A stretch of DNA of 39,539 nucleotides from UHGV virus genome UHGV-0102636, one strand, 5' to 3'. Both the position numbers and the translations under genes were made by a program. The notes under the pieces were generated by a model. It did no database searches and had not been told where the DNA came from. It worked only from the letters and a program-made list of their open reading frames with translations. This document shows, piece by piece, positions 2,200 to 36,998 of this stretch. Source of the stretch: a virus. Numbering within the stretch: position 1 is the first letter of the stretch; each line of letters opens with the position of its first letter.

Positions 2200-2227
2200 G
2201 CTGCTACAATGTAGTAGCTCTTTTTTT
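2198..2227 (+). terminator. Intrinsic terminator
   Basis: GAGCTGCTAC-aat-GTAGTAGCTC followed by a T run. Confidence 0.75.
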
Positions 2228-2687
2228 ATGCCCTAAATCTAAAATAAGCATAAATAACACCAGCTAAAGCAAAAAACACGCCATACTCTCCGCCCCCACC
2301 TGTACGTATTCTTGCTAGAGAAAACTTCCTCCCATATGGCCATAGCCACGGCACTCCGCTTGGATTAAGGCTATCTAATATAAGATGCGATATACACCCC
2401 CAAAATAAGCCCACACACAGCCCTTTCCACATACCCATTAGTAAACATACACCTAATACTATAAATGTAAACAGGAGGCTATGCGTAAGCGTTCTATGCC
2501 CGAATCCTGCAAGCACGCTCGTAGATCTGGCCCTTTTATTAAGAATTGCCCCCGGATGATCTAAATCTGGAATTAGCGAACCCAGTGCAGCCCCTGCCAT
2601 AAACGTCAAAGGCCCTCCCGTAGGAAATATTGCATATGCTATACCACCTACTGCAATTCCACCCGCTATATGTGTCATATATGTCAT
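2226..2687 (-). CDS. YdjM-family inner-membrane metal-dependent hydrolase
   Basis: TH...GSLIPDLDHP...GHRTLTHSL...SHLILDSLNPSGVPWLWP motifs; several hydrophobic segments. Confidence 0.85.
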   Translation of the reverse strand: MTYMTHIAGGIAVGGIAYAIFPTGGPLTFMAGAALGSLIPDLDHPGAILNKRARSTSVLAGFGHRTLTHSLLFTFIVLGVCLLMGMWKGLCVGLFWGCISHLILDSLNPSGVPWLWPYGRKFSLARIRTGGGGEYGVFFALAGVIYAYFRFRA

Positions 2688-2724: not shown

Positions 2725-3585
2725 CTAATTGTCCCCATACATTTTTTCTATATATTCCATTTCTCTACGTTCAAGTTCTGCCATATCCCAGTTATGAGAA
2801 TACGTCCTAGTAAAGGTATTATTTTTAGGCACAGTATTAACCGTAGATGCCTCTTTTTTTGTTGTAGATACATTTATACCATTAATACAAACGGATTCAA
2901 TATAAGCAAAATTAGGCTTATTAGCTTTACGAATACCTACTTTAATTGCAGACACAACTTTTTCATTTCCATAAGAGGTTATTAGATTAAGTAGTAATTC
3001 TTTTTCTGATTTAGATAATCTTTTAATTCCTCGATAATCTTTATATAGTGTTATCACATCTTCATCTTCTTCTGAAGAAGGAACTGATGAGGATGAATTA
3101 TTTTCTTTTTTAGTTATTTTCTTTTTATCCCTATTTTCTTTATATGTGTCCGATTTTCCGATTTCGGATTTTCCGATTTCCGTTTTTCGGTTTTCGGATA
3201 AAGAAGATGTATCTTCACCGTATTCTGATTTTCGGTTTCTGGATGAACCCATTGATTCTATTGGTTTCATATATACAGTATATCTAACACCTGCCATTTT
3301 ACCTTTTGAATCTCTAAGCTGTTCTTTACTTAAAAAACCTGCTTCAATGAGCTCTTGTAGACCTGCTGCAACACTTGCTTTTCCATCGCTTTTTAGTGCA
3401 GTAAGTGATTTAATATAAATTTTATGATTAGGGCTATTTTGAAACTGAAGTATTTGACAGTATATGCCTACAGCTTTAAAACTTAATGTTCTTACATTAA
3501 AAATATAATTAGGTATAGTAGTAAAACCAGCAAATTCATTAGAAAATACAAATTCTGTTTCATTGTTAAATTTTTTTTCAGACAT
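2725..3585 (-). CDS. Second (plasmid-type) replication initiator, wHTH plus DnaD-like C-terminus
   Basis: FTTIPNYIF..LSFKAVGIY N-terminus, repeat-encoded linker, NFAYIESV DnaD-like motif; attenuator leader and DnaA boxes upstream; near the par genes. Confidence 0.75.
   Translation of the reverse strand: MSEKKFNNETEFVFSNEFAGFTTIPNYIFNVRTLSFKAVGIYCQILQFQNSPNHKIYIKSLTALKSDGKASVAAGLQELIEAGFLSKEQLRDSKGKMAGVRYTVYMKPIESMGSSRNRKSEYGEDTSSLSENRKTEIGKSEIGKSDTYKENRDKKKITKKENNSSSSVPSSEEDEDVITLYKDYRGIKRLSKSEKELLLNLITSYGNEKVVSAIKVGIRKANKPNFAYIESVCINGINVSTTKKEASTVNTVPKNNTFTRTYSHNWDMAELERREMEYIEKMYGDN
3150..3240 (+). repeat. Rep-internal direct repeats (plasmid origin candidate)
   Basis: GATTTTCCGATTTC at 3152 and 3167; TTTTCGGTTT at 3184 and 3229. 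Confidence 0.65.
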
Positions 3586-3631
3586 AAAAAATACACTCTC
3601 CTTTTTTTGGTATGCAAAAGAGAGTGTTTCT
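3586..3631 (-). promoter_or_regulatory. rep leader hairpin sequestering the SD / attenuator
   Basis: Minus ACACTCTCTTTT pairs with AAAAGGAGAGTGT (contains the SD), followed by a U run and the ATG. Confidence 0.65.
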
Positions 3632-3667
3632 ATTGATTTTATATTTATTATGGGTTATACTATCTAC

Positions 3668-3753
3668 ATAATTAATACAAAGGTTAAGAAACACTTTCGG
3701 ACACCTTACAGATGATAGTCTCCAAACTATTAATCCATCTGTGAGGTGTTTTT
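3668..3753 (+). ncRNA. Antisense copy-control RNA (ctRNA) candidate
   Basis: Promoter TTGATT(3633)-N17-TATACT(3656). Stem ACACCTTACAGATG/CATCTGTGAGGTGT with a U-G pair that works only on the plus strand; T run at the end. Confidence 0.7.
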
Positions 3754-3789
3754 GCATGCCAATATTTAATTTTTTTAGATTTATATATT

Positions 3790-3894
3790 ATTATACTAGT
3801 TAACTCATTGATACACAACATAATAATTGTGGATACCTGTCATTTTTTTATGGATTTTGTAATAGTTTATACACAGGATACTAATTGTGTATAT
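3790..3894 (-). promoter_or_regulatory. rep promoter and four DnaA boxes
   Basis: TTGTGT(3818)-N17-TATAAT(3795). TTATACACA at 3867-3875 is perfect; one-mismatch boxes at 3809, 3828 and 3886. Confidence 0.65.
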
Positions 3895-3934
3895 ATAATT
3901 CAAGAGGGGATGCTGATTAATCCCCTCTCAATAG

Positions 3935-4177
3935 TTAATTTGTTTCTTCTAAAAACTTGACCTTGCCTTCAATAAACTCTTTCAAAGCATAAGGCATATC
4001 TTTATATAAGAAGTTGTCGGGTAAGCTATCATGAAACTCTGTATCATATTCGAGCACCTGAAGGAACGTTTCAATCTTAGGAGAATATGGACCTTGATAA
4101 CCATTTTCTTTAGTATCTTCGATGAAATCATTTAGATACTCTAATAATAGCTTACATAGTGCTAATTCGCTGATCAT
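3935..4177 (-). CDS. Hypothetical acidic protein
   Basis: 80 aa; SD AGGAGGT; hairpin at 3903-3928 downstream. Confidence 0.7.
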   Translation of the reverse strand: MISELALCKLLLEYLNDFIEDTKENGYQGPYSPKIETFLQVLEYDTEFHDSLPDNFLYKDMPYALKEFIEGKVKFLEETN

Positions 4178-4424: not shown

Positions 4425-5363
4425 CTATTTAATTTGAAGAAGATACCCTGTAGCATTTGCATATAAGCTAGTAAGTTGATTTACCTTTTGCTTATGTGGA
4501 AGAGAAATGCCTGTTATCTTATCCATCAAGTCAGCTCCACCACCAACTAAGTAAATTTTACGTGATTTCATATCAGTAAACTTTTTATTAATTTCAGTAA
4601 CAAGGCTGTCTACTACTGTTGTAGCTGAATAAAGGTAGCTATTAATATCAAACTCACCTTTTTCTGTAAGTACGATAGGGTTATTTAAGAAAATAGTCTC
4701 TATAGATGAAACGTCAGTAATAGATTTTGTTTTTTCTTTATCAAGTATTTCTGTCTTAATGGCATCGTAGATATTATACAACCCTTTATCAGCTGTCATA
4801 TATCCGTCTATTTGCCATTTAGAAAGGTTTTTGTTATAAGTTATACCTATTGCATCTGTAGTGCCGAAACCTACGTCTACAATCAATGCAGAATAATTTT
4901 TATCTATAGCAGGTAACAGATTGATAAATGCACTATACCCCTCTGAGCATATCTTAATGCTTTTTACTTTGATTAGCATAGGCTCACTATTTACTTCACC
5001 ATCTAGAACTACATTTGTAAGGTTTTTAACCTTATCTTCAAAATCTTCTTTTTTGCTGCTCTTGTATAAATCCAACGGAAGTCCAAGGGCTAAATCTATT
5101 TCTCTTACTTTTTCACTTGAACCATACAGTTCATATGCACCAAGTAGTATAGTTTCTTTGATATATTTCCTATCAGTCTTATCTACTTCTACAAGACTAT
5201 CGCCTACTCCAAAATGAAGCGTTTTACCTGCATGAGATACGACGTAATTTGTATCAAGAGAATTTTTAGATACTAATGATCTTACGACCTTGAATACTGG
5301 TTGACCGTCAACTTCTCCTGCAAATTTCATATTGCTGTTTCCTAAATCAATTGCTAATTTCAT
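4425..5363 (-). CDS. parM: ParM/StbA actin-like partition ATPase
   Basis: AIDLGNSNMK, IVDVGFGTTD and LVGGGA actin-fold motifs. Confidence 0.9.
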   Translation of the reverse strand: MKLAIDLGNSNMKFAGEVDGQPVFKVVRSLVSKNSLDTNYVVSHAGKTLHFGVGDSLVEVDKTDRKYIKETILLGAYELYGSSEKVREIDLALGLPLDLYKSSKKEDFEDKVKNLTNVVLDGEVNSEPMLIKVKSIKICSEGYSAFINLLPAIDKNYSALIVDVGFGTTDAIGITYNKNLSKWQIDGYMTADKGLYNIYDAIKTEILDKEKTKSITDVSSIETIFLNNPIVLTEKGEFDINSYLYSATTVVDSLVTEINKKFTDMKSRKIYLVGGGADLMDKITGISLPHKQKVNQLTSLYANATGYLLQIK

Positions 5364-5384
5364 AATAAACCCCCTAGTATTTTT

Positions 5385-5642
5385 TTAAAATGCATCAACT
5401 TCATCTTCATTAAAGTTTTCATTAACTATTACCTTTTCTTCCTCTATATCTTCAACTGTATTTTCTACAGTATCATTTTTAGGGATAAAGGTTGTTCTTG
5501 CTGCACCATTTTTTTCAGCTAAATAATCTGAATAAAGCAATTCTTTAATATATACTCCTGGGTTAAGCTTTGACTTTACCCATTCATATAGTTCTAATTC
5601 AGTTTGGTTTTCTTTGAAAGATAAGTTAAGTTGTTTTGCCAT
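5385..5642 (-). CDS. parR: ParR-like adaptor (RHH N-terminus, acidic tail)
   Basis: ATG at 5642 after SD AAAGGTGA; MAKQLNLSFKENQTELELYEWVKSK..YIKELL; directly upstream of parM. Confidence 0.7.
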   Translation of the reverse strand: MAKQLNLSFKENQTELELYEWVKSKLNPGVYIKELLYSDYLAEKNGAARTTFIPKNDTVENTVEDIEEEKVIVNENFNEDEVDAF

Positions 5643-5674
5643 GCAATCACCTTTCTTTTGTCTAGTAGTTTGTA

Positions 5675-5800
5675 TTAACTTATATAACCTAATATAAATT
5701 ATATAGCCGATTAAAGGAAAATGCAAGAGTATTTTAATATAAAGTTATATAAGGTTATACATAAACATATAAACTACTTTAATATAAAATTATATAAAAA
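5675..5800. promoter_or_regulatory. parC-like centromere around the par promoter
   Basis: Minus TTGCAT(5726)-N17-TATAAT(5703), flanked on both sides by ~10-11-bp-spaced (T/A)ATATAA units. Confidence 0.6.
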
Positions 5801-5828
5801 AATAGGCTTAGAAAAAGTACTAAGCCCT
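5797..5828 (-). terminator. Intrinsic terminator of the ftsK/relaxase operon
   Basis: Minus GGCTTAG-loop-CTAAGCC-TATTTTTT. Confidence 0.6.
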
Positions 5829-5863
5829 GAATAAAATAGTTTAATGCGGGTATAATATATATA

Positions 5864-6291
5864 AACTTAGGCTTTGGCTGTTGCGGGAACAGTCTTAGCT
5901 TTCTTCTTCACTTTAACGATTCTATACCCATTTACATTAATACTTGTGATAAGGGCATTATAAAATAGGAATAGTAAGTTAAAGTAAGGAAAAAGGAGTA
6001 CGAGGAAAATCTTATGATTGAACCCTCTGTATTCCTTTTTTGTTTTTAGGATTAAATAGTTAAACAAGAACAGTGTGACACATAGTGTTGAAACTGATAG
6101 GTTTAACTTAAAATCCATCAAGTAATTTAATAAAGCTTCTTCCATTTGTACTTCATCCTTTCATAAGTAAATTAATTAGTTAATGATGTTTAATAAGACC
6201 TATGCGGTGGCTCGTGCCTGTGCGGGTAATATTAAACTGCATGATCTATTAAGAAAACTACGCAAGAAGTAGTATTAATAATAGCTAGGTT
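5864..6291 (+). ncRNA. Large multibranched structured RNA (or ssDNA element) candidate
   Basis: Ends pair (AACTTAG/CTAGGTT), enclosing about 7 consecutive hairpins; several G-U pairs work only on the plus strand; TATAAT at 5851. Confidence 0.55.
5867..6145 (-). CDS. Possible small membrane protein (may be a shadow of the antisense RNA)
   Basis: 92 aa, two hydrophobic segments, SD AAAGGA; fully overlapped by the plus-strand structure. Confidence 0.4.
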   Translation of the reverse strand: MEEALLNYLMDFKLNLSVSTLCVTLFLFNYLILKTKKEYRGFNHKIFLVLLFPYFNLLFLFYNALITSINVNGYRIVKVKKKAKTVPATAKA

Positions 6292-6868
6292 AATTAAAGA
6301 TACTTATAAAGTCATCTAGCTTGGTGTTAAGCTGCTTAAACTTAAACTTACATTTGCTACTATCTATATCCTTATCTGTAACGTATACAACTACAGGCTT
6401 TTCTTCAAAGTAATCTTTCCATTCTTTTAAAAAGAAGTCATTATACTTCTCATAATTCACTTTATGCTTGTTAGAATTTGTTTCAACTTCAAGTAAAAAG
6501 AAAAAGAAGTTGCCTTCATACTCTCCAATAAATACGGCATCTGGTCGTATGGATCCAAAGACTTTTTCAACGAGCATAGTATTAATAATACTGCATTCGC
6601 TTAACTTAAAGTAAAATTCGTTTCGAAGATTATCATGTGTGAATTGCTTTACAGACCTAATTCTATTTGTGCTATACAAGTAGCCCTTGTAAAGAGTATT
6701 TCTTTCTCTATACAATAGACCATCTTCATGCAACTTCTTAAGCCTTTTCCAACAAACCTTTTGATTATTATAGGCAACCCTATTCAATTGCTCTGCTGTT
6801 GCAAGCCTGAATACTTCAAGCCAATCCATCATTACTTTATCTCTATCCGTAATCATACAACACCTCAC
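6290..6868 (-). CDS. Replication-relaxation (Replic_Relax / MOBC-type) nuclease-relaxase
   Basis: N-terminal wHTH (ATAEQL...KRLKKL), THD motif, IRPDA...LLEVET PD-(D/E)xE core; overlaps the ftsK stop codon. Confidence 0.85.
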   Translation of the reverse strand: MRCCMITDRDKVMMDWLEVFRLATAEQLNRVAYNNQKVCWKRLKKLHEDGLLYRERNTLYKGYLYSTNRIRSVKQFTHDNLRNEFYFKLSECSIINTMLVEKVFGSIRPDAVFIGEYEGNFFFFLLEVETNSNKHKVNYEKYNDFFLKEWKDYFEEKPVVVYVTDKDIDSSKCKFKFKQLNTKLDDFISIFN

Positions 6869-8106
6869 TTAAGTACTTTTAAAGGTTTCTTTTGCGAAGC
6901 CTTTACTTCAACTTCATCTTTCTTTTTAAATTGATTAACGGTATCTTCAATTACACTATCTTGTATATAAAAACTTCTAAAGAACGTATATTTACTTTCA
7001 AGCTTACCAATTGCCTGTGACTGCTCTAAAAGTTCACACCCTACATCATCTATAATAAGCCTGCTGTTAAATTCATTTTCGGTCTTCATCCCTACTGTGC
7101 CAGTGATATTATTTTTCATAGAGGAAGGGATACTGTCTGCTGTAGGCCTTTGAGTACCAAGTACAATATGTAATCCTGCAGCACGTAATTTCCTGCCAAG
7201 ATCAATTAATTCCTTGATTGCATCATAACCTTCTTTCTTATCATTTAAATCCATAAGGTCTGCAAATTCATCAATTATAAGAAAACCTCTTTTCATTTTT
7301 GAGTTAGGTTTAATGGCAATATAATCATCAAAACATCTTTGCCCTGATTCTTTGATTAGTTTTATGCGTCTCTCATATTCTTCTTTTATAGATTGCAAAA
7401 CATAAGGAGCATCATTTAAGTTATCTGCATAGGATGCAATATTTTGTGTATGTTCATATGCACCAAACTCTATGCCTTCTTTAAAGTCCATCAACCAAAG
7501 GGGTGCTCCTGGTATATTATGATAGATATGATTAATAATGATATTTTGCTGGCGACTCTTTCCACTTCCTGTACACCCAATAATTTTAATATGTGGGTCC
7601 TTCTTTAAATCCCAGTAGACGACATTATCATCTAAATCTGTTCCAAGAGGGATTAAGTGCTTAGGGGTTTTCCTAAATTCATAAGGAACTAATTCTATTT
7701 TTTCATTAAGTATTCTAAAATGCATAAGTCCCTTATCATTGTAGATGAATATTTTATTTTTATAACTTTCTCCATCATAGTTGATTAATAGTTTTTCTTC
7801 TATTTTTTTCTTATGCTTAATAAAGTCCTCACATGAAAGTGTATCGGATAGTTTAAATTTAACCAGTAAATAGTTTTTCTTCCTGGTAAATGCAGAGCAT
7901 TGAACCCAGTCACCTTTTGAAGCATCTAATATTCCTAGGTTCTCGAATAAAGATGTATAACCGGTTGTAAGTTGTTCTAACGGATCTACATTAACGGTTT
8001 TAACTGAAGCTTTTTTTGATTTAACATACTTAAAAATAGGAATTACAGCATCTCTAATGGCCATTCCGGTTAGTCCGGTTGCTAACATTACATATCCTAA
8101 TAACAT
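6865..8106 (-). CDS. FtsK/SpoIIIE-family ATPase (coupling-protein-like)
   Basis: Walker A GCTGSGKS, DFKEGIEF, Walker B LIIDEFADL, RAAGLHIVLGTQRP; N-terminal hydrophobic segment; no C-terminal gamma domain. Confidence 0.92.
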   Translation of the reverse strand: MLLGYVMLATGLTGMAIRDAVIPIFKYVKSKKASVKTVNVDPLEQLTTGYTSLFENLGILDASKGDWVQCSAFTRKKNYLLVKFKLSDTLSCEDFIKHKKKIEEKLLINYDGESYKNKIFIYNDKGLMHFRILNEKIELVPYEFRKTPKHLIPLGTDLDDNVVYWDLKKDPHIKIIGCTGSGKSRQQNIIINHIYHNIPGAPLWLMDFKEGIEFGAYEHTQNIASYADNLNDAPYVLQSIKEEYERRIKLIKESGQRCFDDYIAIKPNSKMKRGFLIIDEFADLMDLNDKKEGYDAIKELIDLGRKLRAAGLHIVLGTQRPTADSIPSSMKNNITGTVGMKTENEFNSRLIIDDVGCELLEQSQAIGKLESKYTFFRSFYIQDSVIEDTVNQFKKKDEVEVKASQKKPLKVLK

Positions 8107-8116
8107 TGAATCACTC

Positions 8117-8437
8117 CTATACTAGTTTTGTTGTGTCAACATTAGTACATTTTGGAGATTTATTTTCCTCTTCAATTTCTTCAAACATTCTTTTTATTTT
8201 CTTTTTACGTTCGTGTTCATAAAGCATTTTATCCCATTTTTCTGTTTCTCTTTTTTTTCTAGAAACATATACCTGTTGTCCTGCTGCAACGATAGCAAGC
8301 ACAAGACAAAGTGAAAGTATGAAAAGTAATTCTGGATCACTGCAAGTCATAAAAAATGATAAAAGACTTGCTATAGAGCTTTCATATAATACAATGTTTT
8401 TTTTCTGTTTCTTAGGTGGGATATAATATACTCGCAT
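8117..8437 (-). CDS. Small membrane protein with basic/coiled tail
   Basis: 106 aa, two hydrophobic stretches, SD AGGTGG; immediately upstream of ftsK. Confidence 0.7.
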   Translation of the reverse strand: MRVYYIPPKKQKKNIVLYESSIASLLSFFMTCSDPELLFILSLCLVLAIVAAGQQVYVSRKKRETEKWDKMLYEHERKKKIKRMFEEIEEENKSPKCTNVDTTKLV

Positions 8438-8453
8438 GATCTACACCACCTAT

Positions 8454-8507
8454 TCATTTTAAAAATCCTGTTAGCTTTGAAAGTATAAAACGATTAAATA
8501 AATACAC
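8454..8507 (-). CDS. 17-aa micropeptide MYLFNRFILSKLTGFLK
   Basis: GTG start after perfect SD AAAGGAGGT; stop abuts the SD of the next gene. Confidence 0.5.
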   Translation of the reverse strand: MYLFNRFILSKLTGFLK

Positions 8508-8524
8508 CGTACTACCTCCTTTAG

Positions 8525-8651
8525 AGTTGCATGGGATGTATGAAATGGTTTGAGATATGAGGAGGGAGGTACGAGTGACGAATATAGAAGGGGTTTGAAC
8601 GTGTATTACTCACCCTCTTGTCACCTCATACTCACCAAACACTCTTCAACT
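8525..8651 (+). other. Long irregular rod hairpin
   Basis: Nested pairs AGTTG/CAACT, TGGT/ACCA, TGAG/CTCA, TATGAGG/CCTCATA, GAGT/ACTC, AATATA/TGTATT. Confidence 0.55.
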
Positions 8652-9475: not shown

Positions 9476-10240
9476 CAGATAACAACTAACTTTAATTATT
9501 AAATCTCTTACATTATGATCTGTATATTTTTTATCTCTCCATATATCAGGACTATTTATAATCTTAGTCTCTACCATCTTAGCTATAATAGCTTCATAGC
9601 CACTTACATCAAACAGTCTAATCCCTATCTTACTAATAAGTGCTGGTACATTCTTAAGGTTAATACTTGTCCATGCTGCAGGACTGCCGATGATACCTTC
9701 TAATACTAGGTTCTGAACTGCTTTTTCGTATTCCTTATCCATTTGTATCCCTTGGATAGCTTTCTTAAAATCTGTCCATATTTTAGGCTCCCTAAGCATC
9801 TTCGCAGGGCATTGTTTACCACAACTATCATAGTGCCTAATAACCCTATCTACTGGAATATTTAACTCTTTCATAAGCTTCTTTGTAAGCTCTACTGCAT
9901 GAGCTACAGATTTACTGTAATCTCCGTCTTGGTTGACACAGATTTCTATCCCTATGCTATTGCTGTTATTACATTGCGGCATTGCTGGATTAGAGACATA
10001 CTTCTTGCCATTATGCCAAGATTGTACGTTATGCTCTACTAATTGGATAACTTGTTTATCGTCTACTACATAGTGTGCACTAGCTCCTCTATCTCCACCA
10101 TTAAAATACCTATAATGGCGTTCTGCATCTGCCCCTATATCTGTATTATCTGTTTCATGGATTACGATATAGACTGGTTTATTGATGCCACTATGATTGT
10201 ATTTAATAAGCTTCTTTGTTACCTGGACCATCTTATTCAC
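9470..10240 (-). CDS. Endolysin, N-acetylmuramoyl-L-alanine amidase (Amidase_2)
   Basis: YIVIHET, ASAHYVVDD, SWHNG, SIGIEIC, RHYD..GKQCP; duplicated C-terminal GIIGSP..W / KIINSP..W module. Confidence 0.95.
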   Translation of the reverse strand: MNKMVQVTKKLIKYNHSGINKPVYIVIHETDNTDIGADAERHYRYFNGGDRGASAHYVVDDKQVIQLVEHNVQSWHNGKKYVSNPAMPQCNNSNSIGIEICVNQDGDYSKSVAHAVELTKKLMKELNIPVDRVIRHYDSCGKQCPAKMLREPKIWTDFKKAIQGIQMDKEYEKAVQNLVLEGIIGSPAAWTSINLKNVPALISKIGIRLFDVSGYEAIIAKMVETKIINSPDIWRDKKYTDHNVRDLIIKVSCYLR

Positions 10241-10649
10241 CTACCTTAATAGTCTGTATTTCGGTTAGATTTTTTAGACATTCTTCTGATAATATGGTCG
10301 TACCTGCACCAACCGAAATCGTATTAGTTAACCTAGATTTAGCTTGATTGTTCTTAGATAAGTATTCCTTCATTTGAAGAACTGCAGCTTCTATGTAGCA
10401 ATCTATTTGCTTAGTAGTAAACAATAATCTCATAATAGGTGGTAGCTTCTCATATACCCATGTTACTACAGCAGAATATTTCAGCTCGCCAGTTCCACTG
10501 CCGTACAGTTCTTCAGCTTTACATACAAGGTAAAGTAACATCTCTTTAACCTTGCTCTCATATCCTTTTCTTACAAGGAAAACACACCCTACTATAAACA
10601 CTATTACTGTTAAAATATCGTATAAGTTAGCTTTAATAAATTCTAACAT
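10233..10649 (-). CDS. Holin (LL-H-like)
   Basis: N-terminal TM, AEELYGSGTGELK, IEAAV; directly upstream of the endolysin. Confidence 0.8.
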   Translation of the reverse strand: MLEFIKANLYDILTVIVFIVGCVFLVRKGYESKVKEMLLYLVCKAEELYGSGTGELKYSAVVTWVYEKLPPIMRLLFTTKQIDCYIEAAVLQMKEYLSKNNQAKSRLTNTISVGAGTTILSEECLKNLTEIQTIKVGE

Positions 10650-11110: not shown

Positions 11111-12277
11111 TTACCCTCTAACTGTTATCCGTTTATCCTCTGCATTGTAATCCACTTTAGCACCCGTAAGTTCTGCAAATGCCCGAAGTGGAATAAGTGT
11201 ATAGACGCTTACTACTTTCACAGGAATAGGCATTTTTACCTGAGTAACCTTACCACCTTGCTCTGATTTAATAGTATTACTGCCTACCTGCATGGTAATA
11301 AGTTGATTATGCATCTTGCTGTAGGCTGTAATAACTTTGTCTAAACTTGAATAGCGTACCGTATATCCAAGCGTCTCACATAAGAATCTAAAAGGCACTA
11401 AAGTTGTCCCTTGTTCTACTACTGCAGGATAGTCCATAACCTCTTCTACATCATTAACTTGTACACTTTTAGAACCTACCTTTAATTCAATCGTGGTGCA
11501 TGGGAAGTCAATTTTATTACTATTATGAAAGTTAGGATACTTGATAAGCTTTGAATCTAATTCAAAAGTATGTAAGCTCTTAATATAAGTATCTACACTA
11601 TAAAGGCCTGTCCATTTTTCTGTAAAAGCTTCATATGGAACAAATAAATAGCCTTTATAACCTCTTGTAGTACCGTAAGATTCTTGCATAATAAACCAGT
11701 TTTTATAGGTCACTCCATTGATTGTTTTAGGCATATCTTCTATGTAGCCACATATCCAAATAGCATGTAAGCCATTAGGTTCGCTACCTTTAGCTGGCTT
11801 AACTACACATCCTTGTATAGGGAATGTGTGCTCTTTATATAATTTAACAATTGCAACACACCCACCATTCTCTACAATATGACGCTTTATACTTTCAACA
11901 TCTGTCGTTTTAATTTCTATGCGCTTCTTTGGTTTATACTTTCTAGCCTCTTCGTACATAGCCTCTGTAGTAGGTAGGAACTTGTTGTCATTGTAATCCT
12001 TATCCTCCCATGTAGGATATAAAGCTTCCGTACACATGCCATATTGGCATACCTGGTCCATAAGTTTTTCTATAGGCGTACCTGTTGCATCTGGTCTGCC
12101 ATCTACCTTCTTAGATAACATCATTCCCCAGCTATTACTAAGAGGTGTAACTTTTCCGTATATTCTAGCAAATTGTGCTTCTAATAAGCTACTTACTGCA
12201 TGGTTAGTACACCAGTTACTCCCTCGTTGGTGCTCTATTCCACTTGCTTGATTAAGATATTGTTTTGGTAAAGACAT
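11111..12277 (-). CDS. Papain-like (C1) cysteine peptidase fused to a copper-amine-oxidase N-terminal-like domain
   Basis: HQRGSNWC, GLHAIWICGY, QESYGTTRGYKGY; C-terminal TLVPFRFLCETLG and TLIPLRAFAELTGAKV repeats. Confidence 0.85.
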   Translation of the reverse strand: MSLPKQYLNQASGIEHQRGSNWCTNHAVSSLLEAQFARIYGKVTPLSNSWGMMLSKKVDGRPDATGTPIEKLMDQVCQYGMCTEALYPTWEDKDYNDNKFLPTTEAMYEEARKYKPKKRIEIKTTDVESIKRHIVENGGCVAIVKLYKEHTFPIQGCVVKPAKGSEPNGLHAIWICGYIEDMPKTINGVTYKNWFIMQESYGTTRGYKGYLFVPYEAFTEKWTGLYSVDTYIKSLHTFELDSKLIKYPNFHNSNKIDFPCTTIELKVGSKSVQVNDVEEVMDYPAVVEQGTTLVPFRFLCETLGYTVRYSSLDKVITAYSKMHNQLITMQVGSNTIKSEQGGKVTQVKMPIPVKVVSVYTLIPLRAFAELTGAKVDYNAEDKRITVRG

Positions 12278-25954: not shown

Positions 25955-26530
25955 TTAAAATGAATATTTATATTTTGAGTAGTCCACTTTAGGTGGTTCT
26001 TCTTGGTTTTCTTGTGTTTCTACATGGTCCTGCACATCTTCTGTGCTTCTAATCTCTCTTATAGTAGCTTCATCGCCTCTAAGTTCTACCTGTGTACCAA
26101 AGTAGGCAGGTGTTTTACTTAAAAGACTAACCTCTGTCACTTTTAAGTCCTCTATGTAACGTCGTTCTAGTCCTTCTTTGACTGGTTCATAACGTTGTTT
26201 GTTTGCAAAAAAGCCAAAAGAAAACCCGGTAAGCTTATTATTTTTAGCGCAATCAATTACTTCTTCATCGGTAATTGTTGCCCTAATTTTTAAGCCAATA
26301 TTATCCTCCCATAACTCAACATTTTGCTTAGTTGACCCAAGTTCACGTTTTTTATCATGGTTAAATAACAGTTTTACTTCATCTTCCCTGTCTAATGCTC
26401 TTTGCCATACCCCAGCTTCAATCTGTTCAACAAACTTCCCTCGTCTGTCTGCAAGTTCTCTACTGTCACGACATACTGCATTAACATAGCCGTCAATTTC
26501 AATGCTATTTTCTCTAATCTGTACCCTCAT
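25955..26530 (-). CDS. HK97-family prohead protease
   Basis: FVEQI, LFNHD, EDNIGL, GFSFGF, EVSL..PAY. Confidence 0.93.
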   Translation of the reverse strand: MRVQIRENSIEIDGYVNAVCRDSRELADRRGKFVEQIEAGVWQRALDREDEVKLLFNHDKKRELGSTKQNVELWEDNIGLKIRATITDEEVIDCAKNNKLTGFSFGFFANKQRYEPVKEGLERRYIEDLKVTEVSLLSKTPAYFGTQVELRGDEATIREIRSTEDVQDHVETQENQEEPPKVDYSKYKYSF

Positions 26531-32508: not shown

Positions 32509-32853
32509 TCATTCCCCCTTTAATCTATTAGGTATATTCTGCATTTCTGGGTTAACTTCCTCATGGTATAGTGCATATGCAATATTCCAAAATGCCGCTC
32601 TCAAATGTGGTTCATCTTTAAAACCCATCATGTACTTGCTAAGATGTCTGAATGCACTATCCAACAAACTGCTAAGAGGTATGCCCTTCTCACAATTACG
32701 CTCTCCATATTTTAATGCCCCAGCTTCACAATGCAATGCAAGTTGGTGTATCGCTTCCCAAGGTATTAGATCATAACGACCTTTACCTTCTTGCATGTCT
32801 CTTACTGCACCTGTTTCAAATTCTCTTCTTTCTCCGCTATCTTTTATAGTCAT
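32509..32853 (-). CDS. dATP/dGTP diphosphohydrolase-domain protein (DUF5664-like)
   Basis: REFETGAVRD..GKGRYDLIP, GALKYGERN, DSAFRHL, DEPHLRAAFWNI. Confidence 0.85.
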   Translation of the reverse strand: MTIKDSGERREFETGAVRDMQEGKGRYDLIPWEAIHQLALHCEAGALKYGERNCEKGIPLSSLLDSAFRHLSKYMMGFKDEPHLRAAFWNIAYALYHEEVNPEMQNIPNRLKGE

Positions 32854-33001
32854 TATGTAATCCCCTTTATCCTTTACTTGTACTTTCTATATGCATAATT
32901 TAACTCATATTCAATTTTCTTTTGTTAAGCTATATGTTTATATGCCTAATGCAGTAAAACCGTTTTAAAGCTAAATTATGTATTATTTTGTTTTAATCTA
33001 C

Positions 33002-33220
33002 TCAAAAGTAATTTTTATTGACTACTTTCAATACAACTAAATCAACTTCTACAACCTCATACATTTCATTACATCTTCTTTTTTTGAATGAAAAAAACGC
33101 TTGTTCTTCATCAGCAAAAAGTACTGCTTGTTCACGTGATAATCTTTGCTTGGGTGGACTATAATTATAGTCCGTTCCAAATACCCACTCCCCTGTAGTC
33201 TTATTTATTATGGCGTACAT
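33002..33220 (-). CDS. Hypothetical protein
   Basis: 72 aa, SD AGAGGTGA. Confidence 0.7.
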   Translation of the reverse strand: MYAIINKTTGEWVFGTDYNYSPPKQRLSREQAVLFADEEQAFFSFKKRRCNEMYEVVEVDLVVLKVVNKNYF

Positions 33221-33245
33221 CTTATCACCTCTTTAAAAACATTTT

Positions 33246-33491
33246 TCACTGCATCCGGTCTCTGAAGTTTTTATTAACTTCTTCCACTCTCTTTTTCATT
33301 TCTTCAAACGCTCTTCTCCTTCTAGCTATTTCTTTCTTTGTTCTAATAGTTTCAGCAATACCTATTATCCAGGCAAACGGCATCATAACAATTCCAAGTA
33401 CAATTGCTACTACCAACATCCCCACTAAGAATATTACTGGCATAAGTGCAATTGCAGCTATTACAGCTATAATTCCTCCTACTATTTCCAT
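33246..33491 (-). CDS. Small membrane protein
   Basis: Long hydrophobic N-terminus, basic tail, SD GGGAGGT. Confidence 0.75.
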   Translation of the reverse strand: MEIVGGIIAVIAAIALMPVIFLVGMLVVAIVLGIVMMPFAWIIGIAETIRTKKEIARRRRAFEEMKKRVEEVNKNFRDRMQ

Positions 33492-33521
33492 GCTTTACCT
33501 CCCAAAAACTAATTTTATTGA

Positions 33522-34325
33522 CTACTCTTCAAACATACTGCACTGATTTTCTAGTGGCTTTTCTTTATTCTTACCTAACCACCACGCCATAACATCTTCA
33601 CCGTTCTTCCACTCACATCTATCCTTATCATCAAGATTTTCTAACATACGATCAAATGCTCTCACATAGTTCTCCTTGTATTTAGGGTACATCTCAAACT
33701 CTTTCTCCTGGTTGCTGCTTAAAGGGCATCCTACACATCCTAATCTAGTGAATCCTTGATCGTACAATTCACAGTATGGTATATTGTTAGTCTTTAAAAA
33801 CTCCCACACATCTTCATCCGTCCAGTCAATAATGGGACTTATACAAGTTTTACCTTTCCAGAATGACACCATGGATCTTTTACTTCTTCCTTTGCTCTCG
33901 GCCCATCTCACGCCAAGTAATACAGTATCTCCTACGTTACCTACGTTTTCTTTTAACTCATCGCAACAATATCTTAGTAGTCGTGTGGGTGGTGTTTTTC
34001 TGCTTGCTATTAAGTTAAATATTGTCTTAGGTCTTCCTATAAATCTTCCTTTGGCTTGCCTATTATTAAATGTATTGCACTTTCTCTCAATAACATCTGG
34101 ATAGTATTTTCTTCTAAATCTTATTAACTCAGGTGGATCAGGTGTAGGTGCTGCTTCAGCCCTAAATTTAACCCCTGCCATCTTGGCTAAGTGATATACC
34201 ACTTGACTATCCTTACCACCACTAAAAGCTAATAAATAGCCTGCTGGTGGCTCAAACTCTTTTAATCGCTGCACTGCTATATCAACTTTATTTCTTTCAC
34301 CAAATAACGTATTTTCTATTAACAT
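33522..34325 (-). CDS. PAPS-reductase-family (PP-loop, Fe-S) protein
   Basis: AFSGGKDS, YCCDELKE, GVRWAES, RLGCVGCP. Confidence 0.9.
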   Translation of the reverse strand: MLIENTLFGERNKVDIAVQRLKEFEPPAGYLLAFSGGKDSQVVYHLAKMAGVKFRAEAAPTPDPPELIRFRRKYYPDVIERKCNTFNNRQAKGRFIGRPKTIFNLIASRKTPPTRLLRYCCDELKENVGNVGDTVLLGVRWAESKGRSKRSMVSFWKGKTCISPIIDWTDEDVWEFLKTNNIPYCELYDQGFTRLGCVGCPLSSNQEKEFEMYPKYKENYVRAFDRMLENLDDKDRCEWKNGEDVMAWWLGKNKEKPLENQCSMFEE

Positions 34326-34393
34326 TACTTAATTAGGAGTTCTCGAGATTTAAGGGCCCACTCGTTCTCCTTTCATTTATTCAAAAAACTATT

Positions 34394-34807
34394 TTATTGC
34401 ATATCATTTAATTCTGGTATTCTATAATCACAAATGTATTCTACTGCCATAAACAATACATCTATCAATGTATTTGAATGATTTTCCCATATAGGCGATA
34501 CATCTATGTCATTTGCTGCATCTTCTAAATTTAGTAACTGAATACACCATCTTTCATCTACTGTATAGATATTCATTTGTGCAAACTCTCGTATAAACTC
34601 TATCAACTGTCCTTCTGTTAGTAATGGTGTATTTGCATCGCCTTTTAGTTCTCTAACTGCGTCAAGTTGACTACTTCTATAAATCAAAGTAGGATCTCCG
34701 TCTAACGGAACGTATAAATCCATCATTTTTGGTTGCCACCACTTTAGTAACGTATATTGAGTTGCCATTGACGCTCTATTAAATTTTGCTATATCAATAA
34801 CTTTCAT
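34394..34807 (-). CDS. Hypothetical protein
   Basis: WWQP, PLLTEGQLIEFI; likely ATG at 34807. Confidence 0.7.
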   Translation of the reverse strand: MKVIDIAKFNRASMATQYTLLKWWQPKMMDLYVPLDGDPTLIYRSSQLDAVRELKGDANTPLLTEGQLIEFIREFAQMNIYTVDERWCIQLLNLEDAANDIDVSPIWENHSNTLIDVLFMAVEYICDYRIPELNDMQ

Positions 34808-34827
34808 GTTTTCACCTTCCCAAAGAA

Positions 34828-34968
34828 CTATTTGTTTGATTTGTGGTAGCCACAAATTACTGTGTCGTGCACATTGCATATGTGATTTGTTATACTACAA
34901 ACCAAAACATGTCTACCATTTTCTTTTAATGCTTTTAGGTTCTTACAATCACCACATTTTTTTAACAT
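34828..34968 (-). CDS. 46-aa Cys-rich protein
   Basis: Not in track; MLKKCGDCKNL...LVCSITNHICNVHDTVICGYHKSNK. Confidence 0.55.
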   Translation of the reverse strand: MLKKCGDCKNLKALKENGRHVLVCSITNHICNVHDTVICGYHKSNK

Positions 34969-35007
34969 TGTTATTTACCTTCCCCAAAGAATTATTTTAT
35001 TTGCTTA

Positions 35008-35181
35008 CTACACAACCTTAAATCTTGTTTCTTCATGGCTATTTGCATCTGCAACACCTGTTACTCCATCTTCCACATTCTCATAGTACTCTTCTGCTTT
35101 TCTTATAGCTTCTGTCTTGCTGTCTGCATCAATTTCTAGCTCATACTTATAAATATCTGTTATTTCTATCTTGTACTTCAC
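35008..35181 (-). CDS. DpnD/PcfM-like small protein
   Basis: Not in track; MKYKIEITDIYKYELEIDADSKTEAIRKAEEYY. Confidence 0.7.
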   Translation of the reverse strand: MKYKIEITDIYKYELEIDADSKTEAIRKAEEYYENVEDGVTGVADANSHEETRFKVV

Positions 35182-35205
35182 GTGCCAACACCACCTTCAA
35201 AAAAA

Positions 35206-35394
35206 TTATTTTATGGTTTCAATCTCTTGCTCTATTACTTCCAAATATCTTTTTATTATGCTTACTTCATTTTTAAGATACCTAGTATCTTCTAAATGCA
35301 ACCCTTCTGTTTCAACAAGTGTTGCACCTAGCATTATATTATTAGCTCTATCTTTTATCATTTCAGCATGTATTGATACTTTCTTTGGATTCAT
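35206..35394 (-). CDS. Hypothetical protein
   Basis: 62 aa, SD AAGGGGA. Confidence 0.6.
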   Translation of the reverse strand: MNPKKVSIHAEMIKDRANNIMLGATLVETEGLHLEDTRYLKNEVSIIKRYLEVIEQEIETIK

Positions 35395-35419
35395 ACTATC
35401 CCCTTATAAAACTTAGATT

Positions 35420-36391
35420 CTACTTGCTAATCAGCGTTGCTATATTCTTAAGCCTTACTTCCACCGTTCCATTCGGATTAGTAATGATTTCTACAGCATC
35501 GGGATCATTAAGTATTTGAACAGGTAATTTAATTTCAATACCAGTATTTGTTTTCAACTTGTGAGTGGTATATTTTTTACCTACTTTATAAGCTTGTTGT
35601 AATTCAATAGCCTCTTCTGTTATACCTTGTTCTTCAAGTATATCCATACAAACGTTTATGATTTCTTCCCTATCGCCAAATGTATCATGCAATACATCCT
35701 CTATCATGATGCTACTTGTACTCTTAATGCTTTTAGCTAGATTACTTTTAGCAAAAGAAAGTGCCTCTATTTTATTCTCAAAGTTTTCCTCAATGGCTTC
35801 TGTAATAACTTTTTCTACAACATTGATTTTCTGTTTTGTAGAAAGAGGCGCCGTACAACCTAATAATGTGTGCACATATTTCTCTTTATGAGTATCTAGC
35901 AAAAGGATATTCATTTTCTCTATATTGATAATAGCTGCCTCTTGAATTTTGCTAGTGCTCTCAGGAAATATACTCTTATGCTTTATGATTTGATTACTCT
36001 CTACACTGTGATCCATTGCATGAGTGTATGCTTCTTTATAGTTCAGTTTAATAAATGCCACATATGGTACTGCATCACGTTCAAATTGAGTAATAATCAA
36101 GTCGCCACTTGGAATGTTTTCAAATGTTTGTAGGTATGCAAAAAATTGGTGAGCCATATCACATGAGAAACTATAAAAATCTTTAATACCACTTTTAATA
36201 ACCTCTAGCCATGGTGAGCTGTCTTCAAACACTGCTTTAGCCATGCTATGATTTTCAAATAGACCTACTACATAACTTGTAATATAAGCCTCTGTATCAT
36301 CTGTTAAGGTTAAGCACTGTTTAGATAACAGTGGCCTATCTAATGACGCATCTAACGTGTGCATAATTACTTGTTTAAATATAATACTCAT
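35420..36391 (-). CDS. Nucleoid-associated protein (NdpA/NA37-like)
   Basis: IMHTLD, IPSGDL, IKLNYKEAYTH, LKTNTGIEIKLP, NPNGT. Confidence 0.8.
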   Translation of the reverse strand: MSIIFKQVIMHTLDASLDRPLLSKQCLTLTDDTEAYITSYVVGLFENHSMAKAVFEDSSPWLEVIKSGIKDFYSFSCDMAHQFFAYLQTFENIPSGDLIITQFERDAVPYVAFIKLNYKEAYTHAMDHSVESNQIIKHKSIFPESTSKIQEAAIINIEKMNILLLDTHKEKYVHTLLGCTAPLSTKQKINVVEKVITEAIEENFENKIEALSFAKSNLAKSIKSTSSIMIEDVLHDTFGDREEIINVCMDILEEQGITEEAIELQQAYKVGKKYTTHKLKTNTGIEIKLPVQILNDPDAVEIITNPNGTVEVRLKNIATLISK

Positions 36392-36496
36392 TTTTATCCT
36401 CCGTTCTGGTACCGACAATAATTATTTTCATTCAATGTTTAAAATCTTTTTGTTCTGTTAATAATCTAGTCATAAAATTAATATGAAAAGAGGTCC

Positions 36497-36640
36497 ATGA
36501 ATGGTTATTAAAATACTAATCAATATTTTTCTTTAATATCTCATCTGGGGGCCCTTTGGCCTCCTAAGATATTAAACAACCATTCATTAATATCACTTTT
36601 AATCTAAAAAAGCCTTCGAGTAAATTGATTGCTCGAAGGC
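36497..36640 (+). ncRNA. Structured intergenic RNA candidate plus hairpin
   Basis: Nested ATGAATGGTT/AACCATTCAT, TTTAATATCT/AGATATTAAA and GGGGGCC/GGCCTCC, then GCCTTCGAGTAA/TTGCTCGAAGGC. Confidence 0.45.
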
Positions 36641-36677
36641 ACTTTCATTTCTTCAAGTAATCAAAATTTACTCTTAT

Positions 36678-36998
36678 CTACTCGCCATACTTTAAGGCAT
36701 TTGCATTTCTAGTAATTGTTTCCCATGTATTTGCAAATTCACAAATTCTATGTGTCTTTGGAACCACCATTCTTACATTGTCATTTTTGAAATCCATTAT
36801 TTCTTTTGTTATTCCTAAAGACTCCATGCTTATATAACAATCTCCACATCTGCATATCCTTTTTGCTTCTTCCTTTGCGTATAGCCCTGCTTTGTTCAAA
36901 TCAGTAGAATAACCACATCCATTCTTCCCCCAAAACAACACATCACTATAGCTATTCCAATACCTAAGTGCTATAATCAAATACTTTTTCTCTTCCAT
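36678..36998 (-). CDS. Hypothetical protein
   Basis: LFWGKNGCGYSTDLNKAGLY; SD GGAGGGG. Confidence 0.75.
   Translation of the reverse strand: MEEKKYLIIALRYWNSYSDVLFWGKNGCGYSTDLNKAGLYAKEEAKRICRCGDCYISMESLGITKEIMDFKNDNVRMVVPKTHRICEFANTWETITRNANALKYGE

Follow-up and report, generated by a model that had tools for sequence, protein, structure and literature searches.

The DNA analysed here, called the window throughout, is a stretch of 39,539 nucleotides that makes up nearly all of a complete phage genome of 39,590 bases with direct terminal repeats. Profile matches identify genes for its virion, namely those for a contractile tail, terminase, portal, capsid and sheath, and the window also encodes two HTH repressors and a Rep-like gene. 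As ParM-like and ParR-like partition genes are present at 4425-5642 together with Rep, the phage is probably plasmid-like and, consequently, able to miss the spore. Judging from its terminase, whose best match is to clostridial phages (40%), and from the order of the bacterial genome that holds the nearest relative of its Replic_Relax protein (reached via locus L036, a 'Candidatus Eubacterium'), the host is probably a member of the Clostridia, order Lachnospirales. Elsewhere in the genome, genes with a dATP/dGTP diphosphohydrolase N-terminal domain and a PAPS-reductase domain are clustered with a gene for an NA37 nucleoid protein at 32509-36418, an arrangement that may serve DNA modification or nucleotide-pool control. 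In addition, the gene at 11111-12277, beside the lysis genes, encodes a papain-like cysteine protease with a fused copper-amine-oxidase N-terminal domain.

After the lysis genes, four genes follow one another on the minus strand. The first encodes a 106-aa transmembrane protein (8117-8437), and similar genes head the module in two related loci, L043 and L092. It is followed by a gene for an FtsK/SpoIIIE-family ATPase with a hydrophobic N-terminus (6865-8106; E 1e-20) and by one for a nuclease/relaxase-like Replic_Relax protein (PF13814), which is 188 aa long when counted from the start codon that its relatives use (6290-6856; E 1e-7, above the cut-off). In 27 relatives of the latter, the H, PD, ExE and KY columns are conserved; a search with the nuclease profile found no relative of solved structure. 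The fourth gene, at 5867-6145, encodes a membrane protein of 92 aa. FtsK/Replic_Relax modules are commonly carried by phages of spore-formers, and those of Bacillus, Geobacillus and Clostridium phages show the same order of small gene, FtsK and Replic_Relax after the lysis genes. In the available part of PMC9658697, such modules are interpreted as serving plasmid-prophage maintenance, although their role is only guessed.

Several further features were observed in and around the module. In three loci, at 8440-8600 on the minus strand of the window, 11890-11960 of L092 and 5075-5170 of L043, the leader of its first gene contains a CU-rich tract that is conserved (TCACTC...CTTC.T[A]TC...A[A]ACC..TCAT) and could pair with the downstream ribosome site. 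The window also has a 17-codon GTG uORF with AGGAGG upstream of the 106-aa gene, and on the plus strand of the module leader, both in the window and in L043, there are 7-codon ORFs ending in GV behind strong ribosome sites. In L043, a gene for a 170-aa protein, whose N-terminus is hydrophobic and which contains an HExxH motif, lies between Replic_Relax and the membrane gene (2326-2838), and a folded spacer of 395 nt comes after it. A YdjM-like gene is found near the module in both L043 (546-1007) and the window (2226-2687).

The fourth gene had been overlooked in the earlier note, which instead described an ornate plus-strand structure over the same bases. Its ribosome-binding site, AAAGGA (6161-6156, within 6146-6162), lies 10 nt upstream of the ATG, and this site and the start codon are the complement of what had been taken for a pyrimidine loop. 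Purine-rich GGAG sites occupy the corresponding place in L043 and L075. Also overlooked was an intrinsic terminator on the minus strand (5794-5827), which consists of an 8-pair stem (5827-5804) and a U-run and ends the gene and the module. Terminator hairpins of -11 to -12 kcal/mol with U-rich tails are found at the same position in all four homologous loci, with differing sequences. Between the Replic_Relax stop codon, located at 6290-6292 and thus at the 3′ end of the described structure as had been claimed, and the membrane-protein gene there is a structured spacer (6163-6289, minus strand) with hairpins at about 6188-6254 and 6257-6273. This spacer is likely an mRNA leader or a processing site. 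Its minus/plus folding z-scores are -2.7/-1.2 in the window, -3.6/-2.1 in genome G213 and -2.5/-3.2 in L043, where it measures 144, 169 and 395 nt, respectively.

Conservation indicates that 5867-6145 is almost certainly a real gene. The 92-aa protein is 37% identical to an ORF of L043 (E 9e-13) and 42% identical to one of L075, the locus in G213. When the window is compared with L043, the fraction of identical nucleotides at the three codon positions is 0.41/0.58/0.42, different codons are used for 16 of the 29 identical residues, and this frame alone is free of stops in both sequences. A profile search of 1.84 billion representatives (E up to 0.001) places the protein in a family of 12 clusters at 50% identity, with lengths of 88-106 aa. 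All 15 aligned members have two segments with a hydropathy of 1.5-2.7 and a net charge of +8 to +15, and the conserved polar residues are N, Y, P and N. The predicted model of the window protein consists of two long helices, at low confidence (pTM 0.35), and the protein ends in a basic tail. It has no family in Pfam, NCBIfam or PHROGs, and the 15 members give only scattered weak matches to these databases (E 0.001 or worse). A structure search with the model returned no match (E above 6), and Atlas feature matches reach 0.76-0.83, which is under the useful level.

A word-based protein search returned only the protein's own cluster, with five near-identical members, and DNA homologues were therefore sought via Replic_Relax. 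A DNA pattern matched 74 genome and metagenome loci, of which one, L043, is a true homologue, and no viral locus. Among 401 genomes, one (G213) holds a close Replic_Relax homologue, and the family profile of the 92-aa protein detects a match in 2 of the 47 genomes of G213's family, the same two being the only ones among the 401 of its order. In the second of these genomes, G173 (L097/L098), what remains of the gene is its 3′ three quarters, which lie next to an integrase at the end of a prophage. There, the gene fragment is joined to an apparent module leader and the genome has no Replic_Relax match. At L097 1730-1822 (G173:C21), an apparent deletion has fused the module leader to the membrane gene near codon 24; the transmembrane, FtsK and Replic_Relax genes have been removed, while the frame, promoter motif and hairpins are retained. 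No such ORF is visible by eye in the distant FtsK/Replic_Relax loci L076, L077, L088, L089 and L093 and, in contrast to the window, none is annotated after Replic_Relax in phages phi18-2 and GBSV1. DNA relatives were found neither by blastn among phages or plasmids nor by tblastn of Replic_Relax or of the L043 membrane protein, and peptide-pattern scans of viral, genome and metagenome contigs yielded no relative. In these searches, the family was encountered only with the close clade.

Directly abutting the terminator, on the opposite strand, is a predicted promoter that faces the gene (5828-5857, plus). It comprises GAATA at 5829-5833, GG at 5848-5849 and TATAATA at 5851-5857, which bears out the candidate plus-strand promoter GAATA-N17-TATAAT that the earlier note had placed at 5829-5856, at the 5′ end of its structure. 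The layout of terminator, opposite-facing promoter motif and gene end is common to the four homologous loci (window, L092, L043 and L098), and in all of them the motif conforms to G[AT]ATA-N14/15-GGN-[AT]AT[AT][ACT]TA. This final pattern, which was fitted on the same four sites that it scores, has exactly one match per locus (39.5, 19, 6.2 and 18 kb), against means of 0.05-0.2 in shuffled sequences. It has no match in nine distant FtsK/Replic_Relax loci, and phi18-2 and GBSV1 lack the motif. A sigmaG pattern that was fixed before G173 was found matched the promoter site in the three loci then known, among two matches per locus. A second sigmaG-like site lies within the first module gene of G213 and is not kept in the window.

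The motif resembles promoters that have been mapped for the forespore factors sigmaF and sigmaG in Clostridioides difficile (PMC3789822, Table S6). For instance, that of CD1789 reads TGAATT-N14-GGATATACTA, and the window has TGAATA-N14-GGGTATAATA (PMC3789822). According to the available part of the same source, a G before the -10 element is sigmaF-like and an A after it is sigmaG-like (PMC3789822); all four sites carry both. The -35 element, the -10 context and the spacing agree with the mapped promoters in a comparison made by eye rather than by weight-matrix score. The TATAAT of the window would fit sigmaA too, but a perfect sigmaA -10 element is found in the window only, which makes it less likely that sigmaA reads the promoter. 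Thus, the hint at sporulation given in the earlier note gains substance from a sigmaF/sigmaG-like motif that recurs in four of four loci. The motif is likely a forespore-type promoter that drives an antisense RNA into the membrane-protein gene.

The region downstream of this promoter is strongly folded, as had been claimed: on the plus strand, 5860-6295 reaches -113.4 kcal/mol (z -5.90), and none of 100 shuffled sequences does as well. The minus strand also folds (-95.7 kcal/mol, z -4.28). All 11 arm pairs that were looked up exist, nearly all of them where they had been placed; the TAATTTA arm is present in sequence and starts at 6123 rather than 6127. Five of the seven claimed segments fold beyond chance on the plus strand (z of -2.5 for 5864-5900, -2.5 for 5905-5990, -5.7 for 5986-6045, -4.1 for 6045-6120 and -2.5 for 6185-6256), and the other two do not: 6122-6180 is practically unfolded (-0.2 kcal/mol, z +1.3) and 6255-6292 is at the level of chance (z -0.4). 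The helix said to close the whole, between 5864 and 6291, has pair probabilities of 0.83-0.98 in the window; it has no counterpart in G213, whose best duplex is -5.1 kcal/mol, and the -9.9 kcal/mol duplex of L043 forms through different pairs. G-U pairs do not single out the plus strand as was argued, since they account for 11 of 136 pairs on the plus strand and 8 of 129 on the minus strand. The region agrees with no known RNA family, as had been noted: Rfam gives no match at gathering score in the window, and the best E value in 5600-6400 is 1.5.

Strong folding is not unique to this region. In a rough scan of the genome with 120-nt segments and 8 shuffles each, 83 of 493 segments had a z below -2.5 on one strand, and several were stronger than those found here. 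In the same scan, segments at 26241, 32881, 36481-36680 and 38641 reached z -6 to -8. The stretch at 3520-3960, just upstream of the Rep-like gene (2725-3585), is strongly folded on either strand, with z-scores down to -6.7 at 3681, and could be a copy-control leader or an origin.

The predicted cis-antisense RNA would span 5863-6047 on the plus strand and contain the hairpins h1 (5869-5901), h2 (5905-5989) and h3 (5990-6041), followed by a U-run. It would measure about 185 nt or more; its 3′ end is uncertain, and it may extend over a further hairpin, h4, and the ribosome site. Three hairpins occur in the same order on the plus strand of all four loci, with registers that shift from locus to locus, and the z-scores of the region are -4.8 in the window, -4.1 in G173, -3.9 in G213 and -1.6 in L043. 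The U-run after h3, which is present in the window and G173 and absent from G213 and L043, is explained by lysine codons. Hairpin h4 lies in the 5′ part of the gene (6049-6116) and has a z of -4.1 on the plus and -3.0 on the minus strand. It is not conserved pair by pair, as 11 of its 22 pairs are kept in L043, and the region is deleted in G173.

Could the hairpins arise merely because U-rich helix codons face A-rich lysine codons? Compared with permutations of synonymous codons, the antisense/sense z-scores within the gene are -5.6/-4.3 in the window, -3.4/-3.1 in G213, -2.0/-1.3 in L043 and -3.6/-4.0 in G173, where the sense strand folds slightly better than the antisense strand. Folding thus exceeds the synonymous-codon controls in three of the four loci, and the codon explanation is rejected for the window, G213 and G173, but not for L043. 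Nine control pieces from other genes gave antisense z-scores of -3.5 to +2.3 in the same comparison; the lowest value comes from one of the nine, the first 279 bases of the holin gene (10233-10649; z -3.5 antisense and -2.6 sense, 15 permutations).

Particular base pairs are not preserved. Where positions have changed, plus-strand pairs of the window are kept in 14 of 50, 23 of 53 and 6 of 22 cases, and about 41% would be expected by chance. When homologous regions from the four loci were compared, as the earlier note had proposed, RNAalifold yielded no consensus (7 pairs, -3.4 kcal/mol, covariation term 0), although a covarying core of modest size might escape notice with only four loci. The alignments show no conserved core of nucleotides that coding would not explain. 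Four close variants of the protein lean to the plus strand: all 11 base changes fit the plus fold and 9 of the 11 fit the minus fold, two of them converting G-C to G-U on the plus strand and giving mismatches on the minus strand. The corresponding P is 0.002 against all non-synonymous changes and 0.067 against transitions, which make up 8 of the 11 changes; these base changes were deduced from the proteins, and pairs with a probability below 0.5 were counted as unpaired, which spared two of them. In effect, selection seems to keep the region folded, with a lean to the plus strand and without a fixed architecture. Such a pattern fits either an antisense RNA or an mRNA that is folded, but not an ornate RNA. 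Selection seems to act on the same stretch of 280 bases at two levels, the protein and the folded RNA. The idea that a plus-strand RNA activates the module in trans, through the CU-rich leader at about 8540-8570, was also considered and rejected; the duplexes are no better than those of shuffled sequences, and there is no preference for the own locus in nine pairings.

Taken together, the motif and the folding suggest that a forespore-driven antisense RNA probably exists and, given such an RNA, the odds that the 92-aa protein is toxic are slightly better than even. The reading that we prefer, to which we assign a probability of roughly 0.4, is that a forespore cis-antisense RNA silences a probably toxic membrane protein in the manner of a type I toxin-antitoxin pair, and that spores lacking phage DNA would fail as a result. 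The module mRNA would be made around the onset of sporulation, end at the terminator (5804-5827) and be long-lived because it is folded. After septation, the promoter would fire only in a forespore that holds phage DNA. The antisense RNA would start near 5863, probably stop at h3 and the U-run near 6047, and pair from end to end with the mRNA of the gene over its 3′ two thirds, which would lead to cleavage of the double strand or to a block of translation. A forespore with the mRNA but without phage DNA would make the membrane protein and fail. FtsK and Replic_Relax would help to bring phage DNA into the forespore. That all of this forms one device for spore inheritance, in which the two proteins import DNA and a two-helix toxin kills phage-free spores unless the forespore antisense RNA is present, is a more speculative proposal that we hold doubtful. 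Some findings speak against the mechanism: the prophages of G213 and G173 are integrated and can thus reach the spore unaided; many FtsK/Replic_Relax modules lack the 92-aa gene; and both strands fold.

The closest parallels are found among type I toxin-antitoxin pairs, in which an opposite-facing RNA overlaps the 3′ part of the toxin gene. The window shares with those of Firmicutes prophages (txpA/RatA, bsrG/SR4, bsrE/SR5 and C. difficile pairs) a small hydrophobic protein with a charged C-terminus, a predicted convergent overlap of the gene's 3′ part and a proposed role in keeping the element. By contrast, type I toxins have about 30-59 aa and one helix, whereas the window family has 88-106 aa and two hydrophobic helices. 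The window gene, unlike those toxins, has no Pfam, NCBIfam or PHROG match, and it differs from the pairs in standing at the tail of an FtsK/Replic_Relax module and in having a predicted overlap of at least 180 nt of coding sequence. Moreover, the C. difficile pairs are linked to sigmaB, whereas the window promoter looks like one for sigmaF or sigmaG. The proposed pair would thus work like a type I pair but cannot be classed as one, because its size and helix number lie outside those of described toxins. In the available part of PMC10730256, small hydrophobic toxins with basic tails and antisense RNAs are described as common in Firmicutes prophages, the C. difficile toxins are single-helix proteins of 34-59 aa, and sigmaB is named for their pairs.

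The proposed logic is the same as that of hok/sok post-segregational killing, where a stable, folded toxin mRNA is countered by an antisense RNA that is made only where the DNA is present. Here, the forespore would take the place of the 'daughter', and the promoter of the antitoxin would be compartment-specific; there is no sequence relation. The available parts of PMC8190038 and PMC10210947 contain nothing on the FtsK/Replic_Relax module. In the literature that was searched, no antisense RNA or toxin-antitoxin pair that is under forespore control and linked with a module of this kind was found. A recent preprint reportedly describes an apparatus by which phages deliver their DNA to developing spores, along with a toxin-antitoxin system that removes spores lacking the DNA. 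If this preprint exists and covers the module, the novelty shrinks to the protein family and the RNA antitoxin.

Among other explanations, the one that survives best, and which we consider possible though doubtful, keeps the forespore antisense RNA but makes the 92-aa protein a harmless accessory of the DNA pump, such as a channel or an anchor, which the RNA turns off with the rest of the module once the DNA has arrived. Small membrane proteins accompany TraB of Streptomyces, and the gene is fixed at the end of the transmembrane/FtsK/Replic_Relax module in three of the four loci. Two helices with conserved N, Y, P and N suit a specific partner better than a pore peptide, and cluster P0093 and Replic_Relax cluster P0009 agree in their number of contigs (7) and in their longest contig (7037), a hint that they are linked. 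Nevertheless, distant modules work without the gene, and G173 retains most of it along with the promoter and hairpins but has no pump genes.

Alternatively, there may be no functional plus-strand RNA: the fold would serve the stability or delayed translation of the sense mRNA, and the motif would be part of the terminator or a weak promoter of no consequence. This is unlikely. The good folding of the minus strand, the spacer that is better folded on that strand in two of three loci and the absence of covariation at the level of pairs are all in its favor, but the position of the motif is kept in four of four loci, once per locus, despite differing flanks, and the changes in the protein variants lean towards the plus fold.

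A role of the region as DNA, that is, as an oriT or single-strand origin for Replic_Relax and FtsK overlaid on the gene, had also been suggested in the earlier note and seems improbable. In its favor are long inverted repeats beside a relaxase-like gene and a coupling-protein-like ATPase. Nevertheless, 65% of the region is coding, pairing at positions that have changed survives no better than expected by chance, hairpin registers differ between loci, and neither a conserved nucleotide core beyond coding in the alignments nor a plasmid or phage match by blastn was found; furthermore, the element persists in G173 without the nuclease.

Large ornate noncoding RNAs, such as ROOL, GOLLD, OLE, ARRPOF and raiA, resemble the region in having multiple long stems within a phage and a promoter at the 5′ end, but they differ from it in that the window shows no credible Rfam match, no covarying consensus and an overlap with a conserved gene. 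The proposal of a single, free-standing RNA of 430 nt that binds the nuclease or the ATPase is highly improbable in spite of the strong fold and closing helix of the window sequence taken alone, as 65% of the span (279 of 428 bases) is a conserved protein gene on the opposite strand, RNAalifold finds no structure common to the four loci, G213 lacks the closing helix, the spacer varies from 144 to 395 nt, a 170-codon gene separates Replic_Relax from the element in L043, and G173 has lost h4 and keeps the promoter and hairpins in a genome without a Replic_Relax match. Instead, on the preferred reading, two overlapping RNAs share the hairpins.

A striking 'ncRNA' may therefore be the reverse side of a small gene, which in this case adds a membrane-protein family that had no earlier name. 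A forespore-type promoter directed into the last gene of the module would link the module to sporulation, and this link offers a test of how a plasmid-like prophage enters the spore lineage and stays in it. If the preferred reading is true, the phage would have coupled post-segregational killing to the asymmetric division of sporulating cells, and the codons of the toxin would also encode the fold of the antitoxin RNA.
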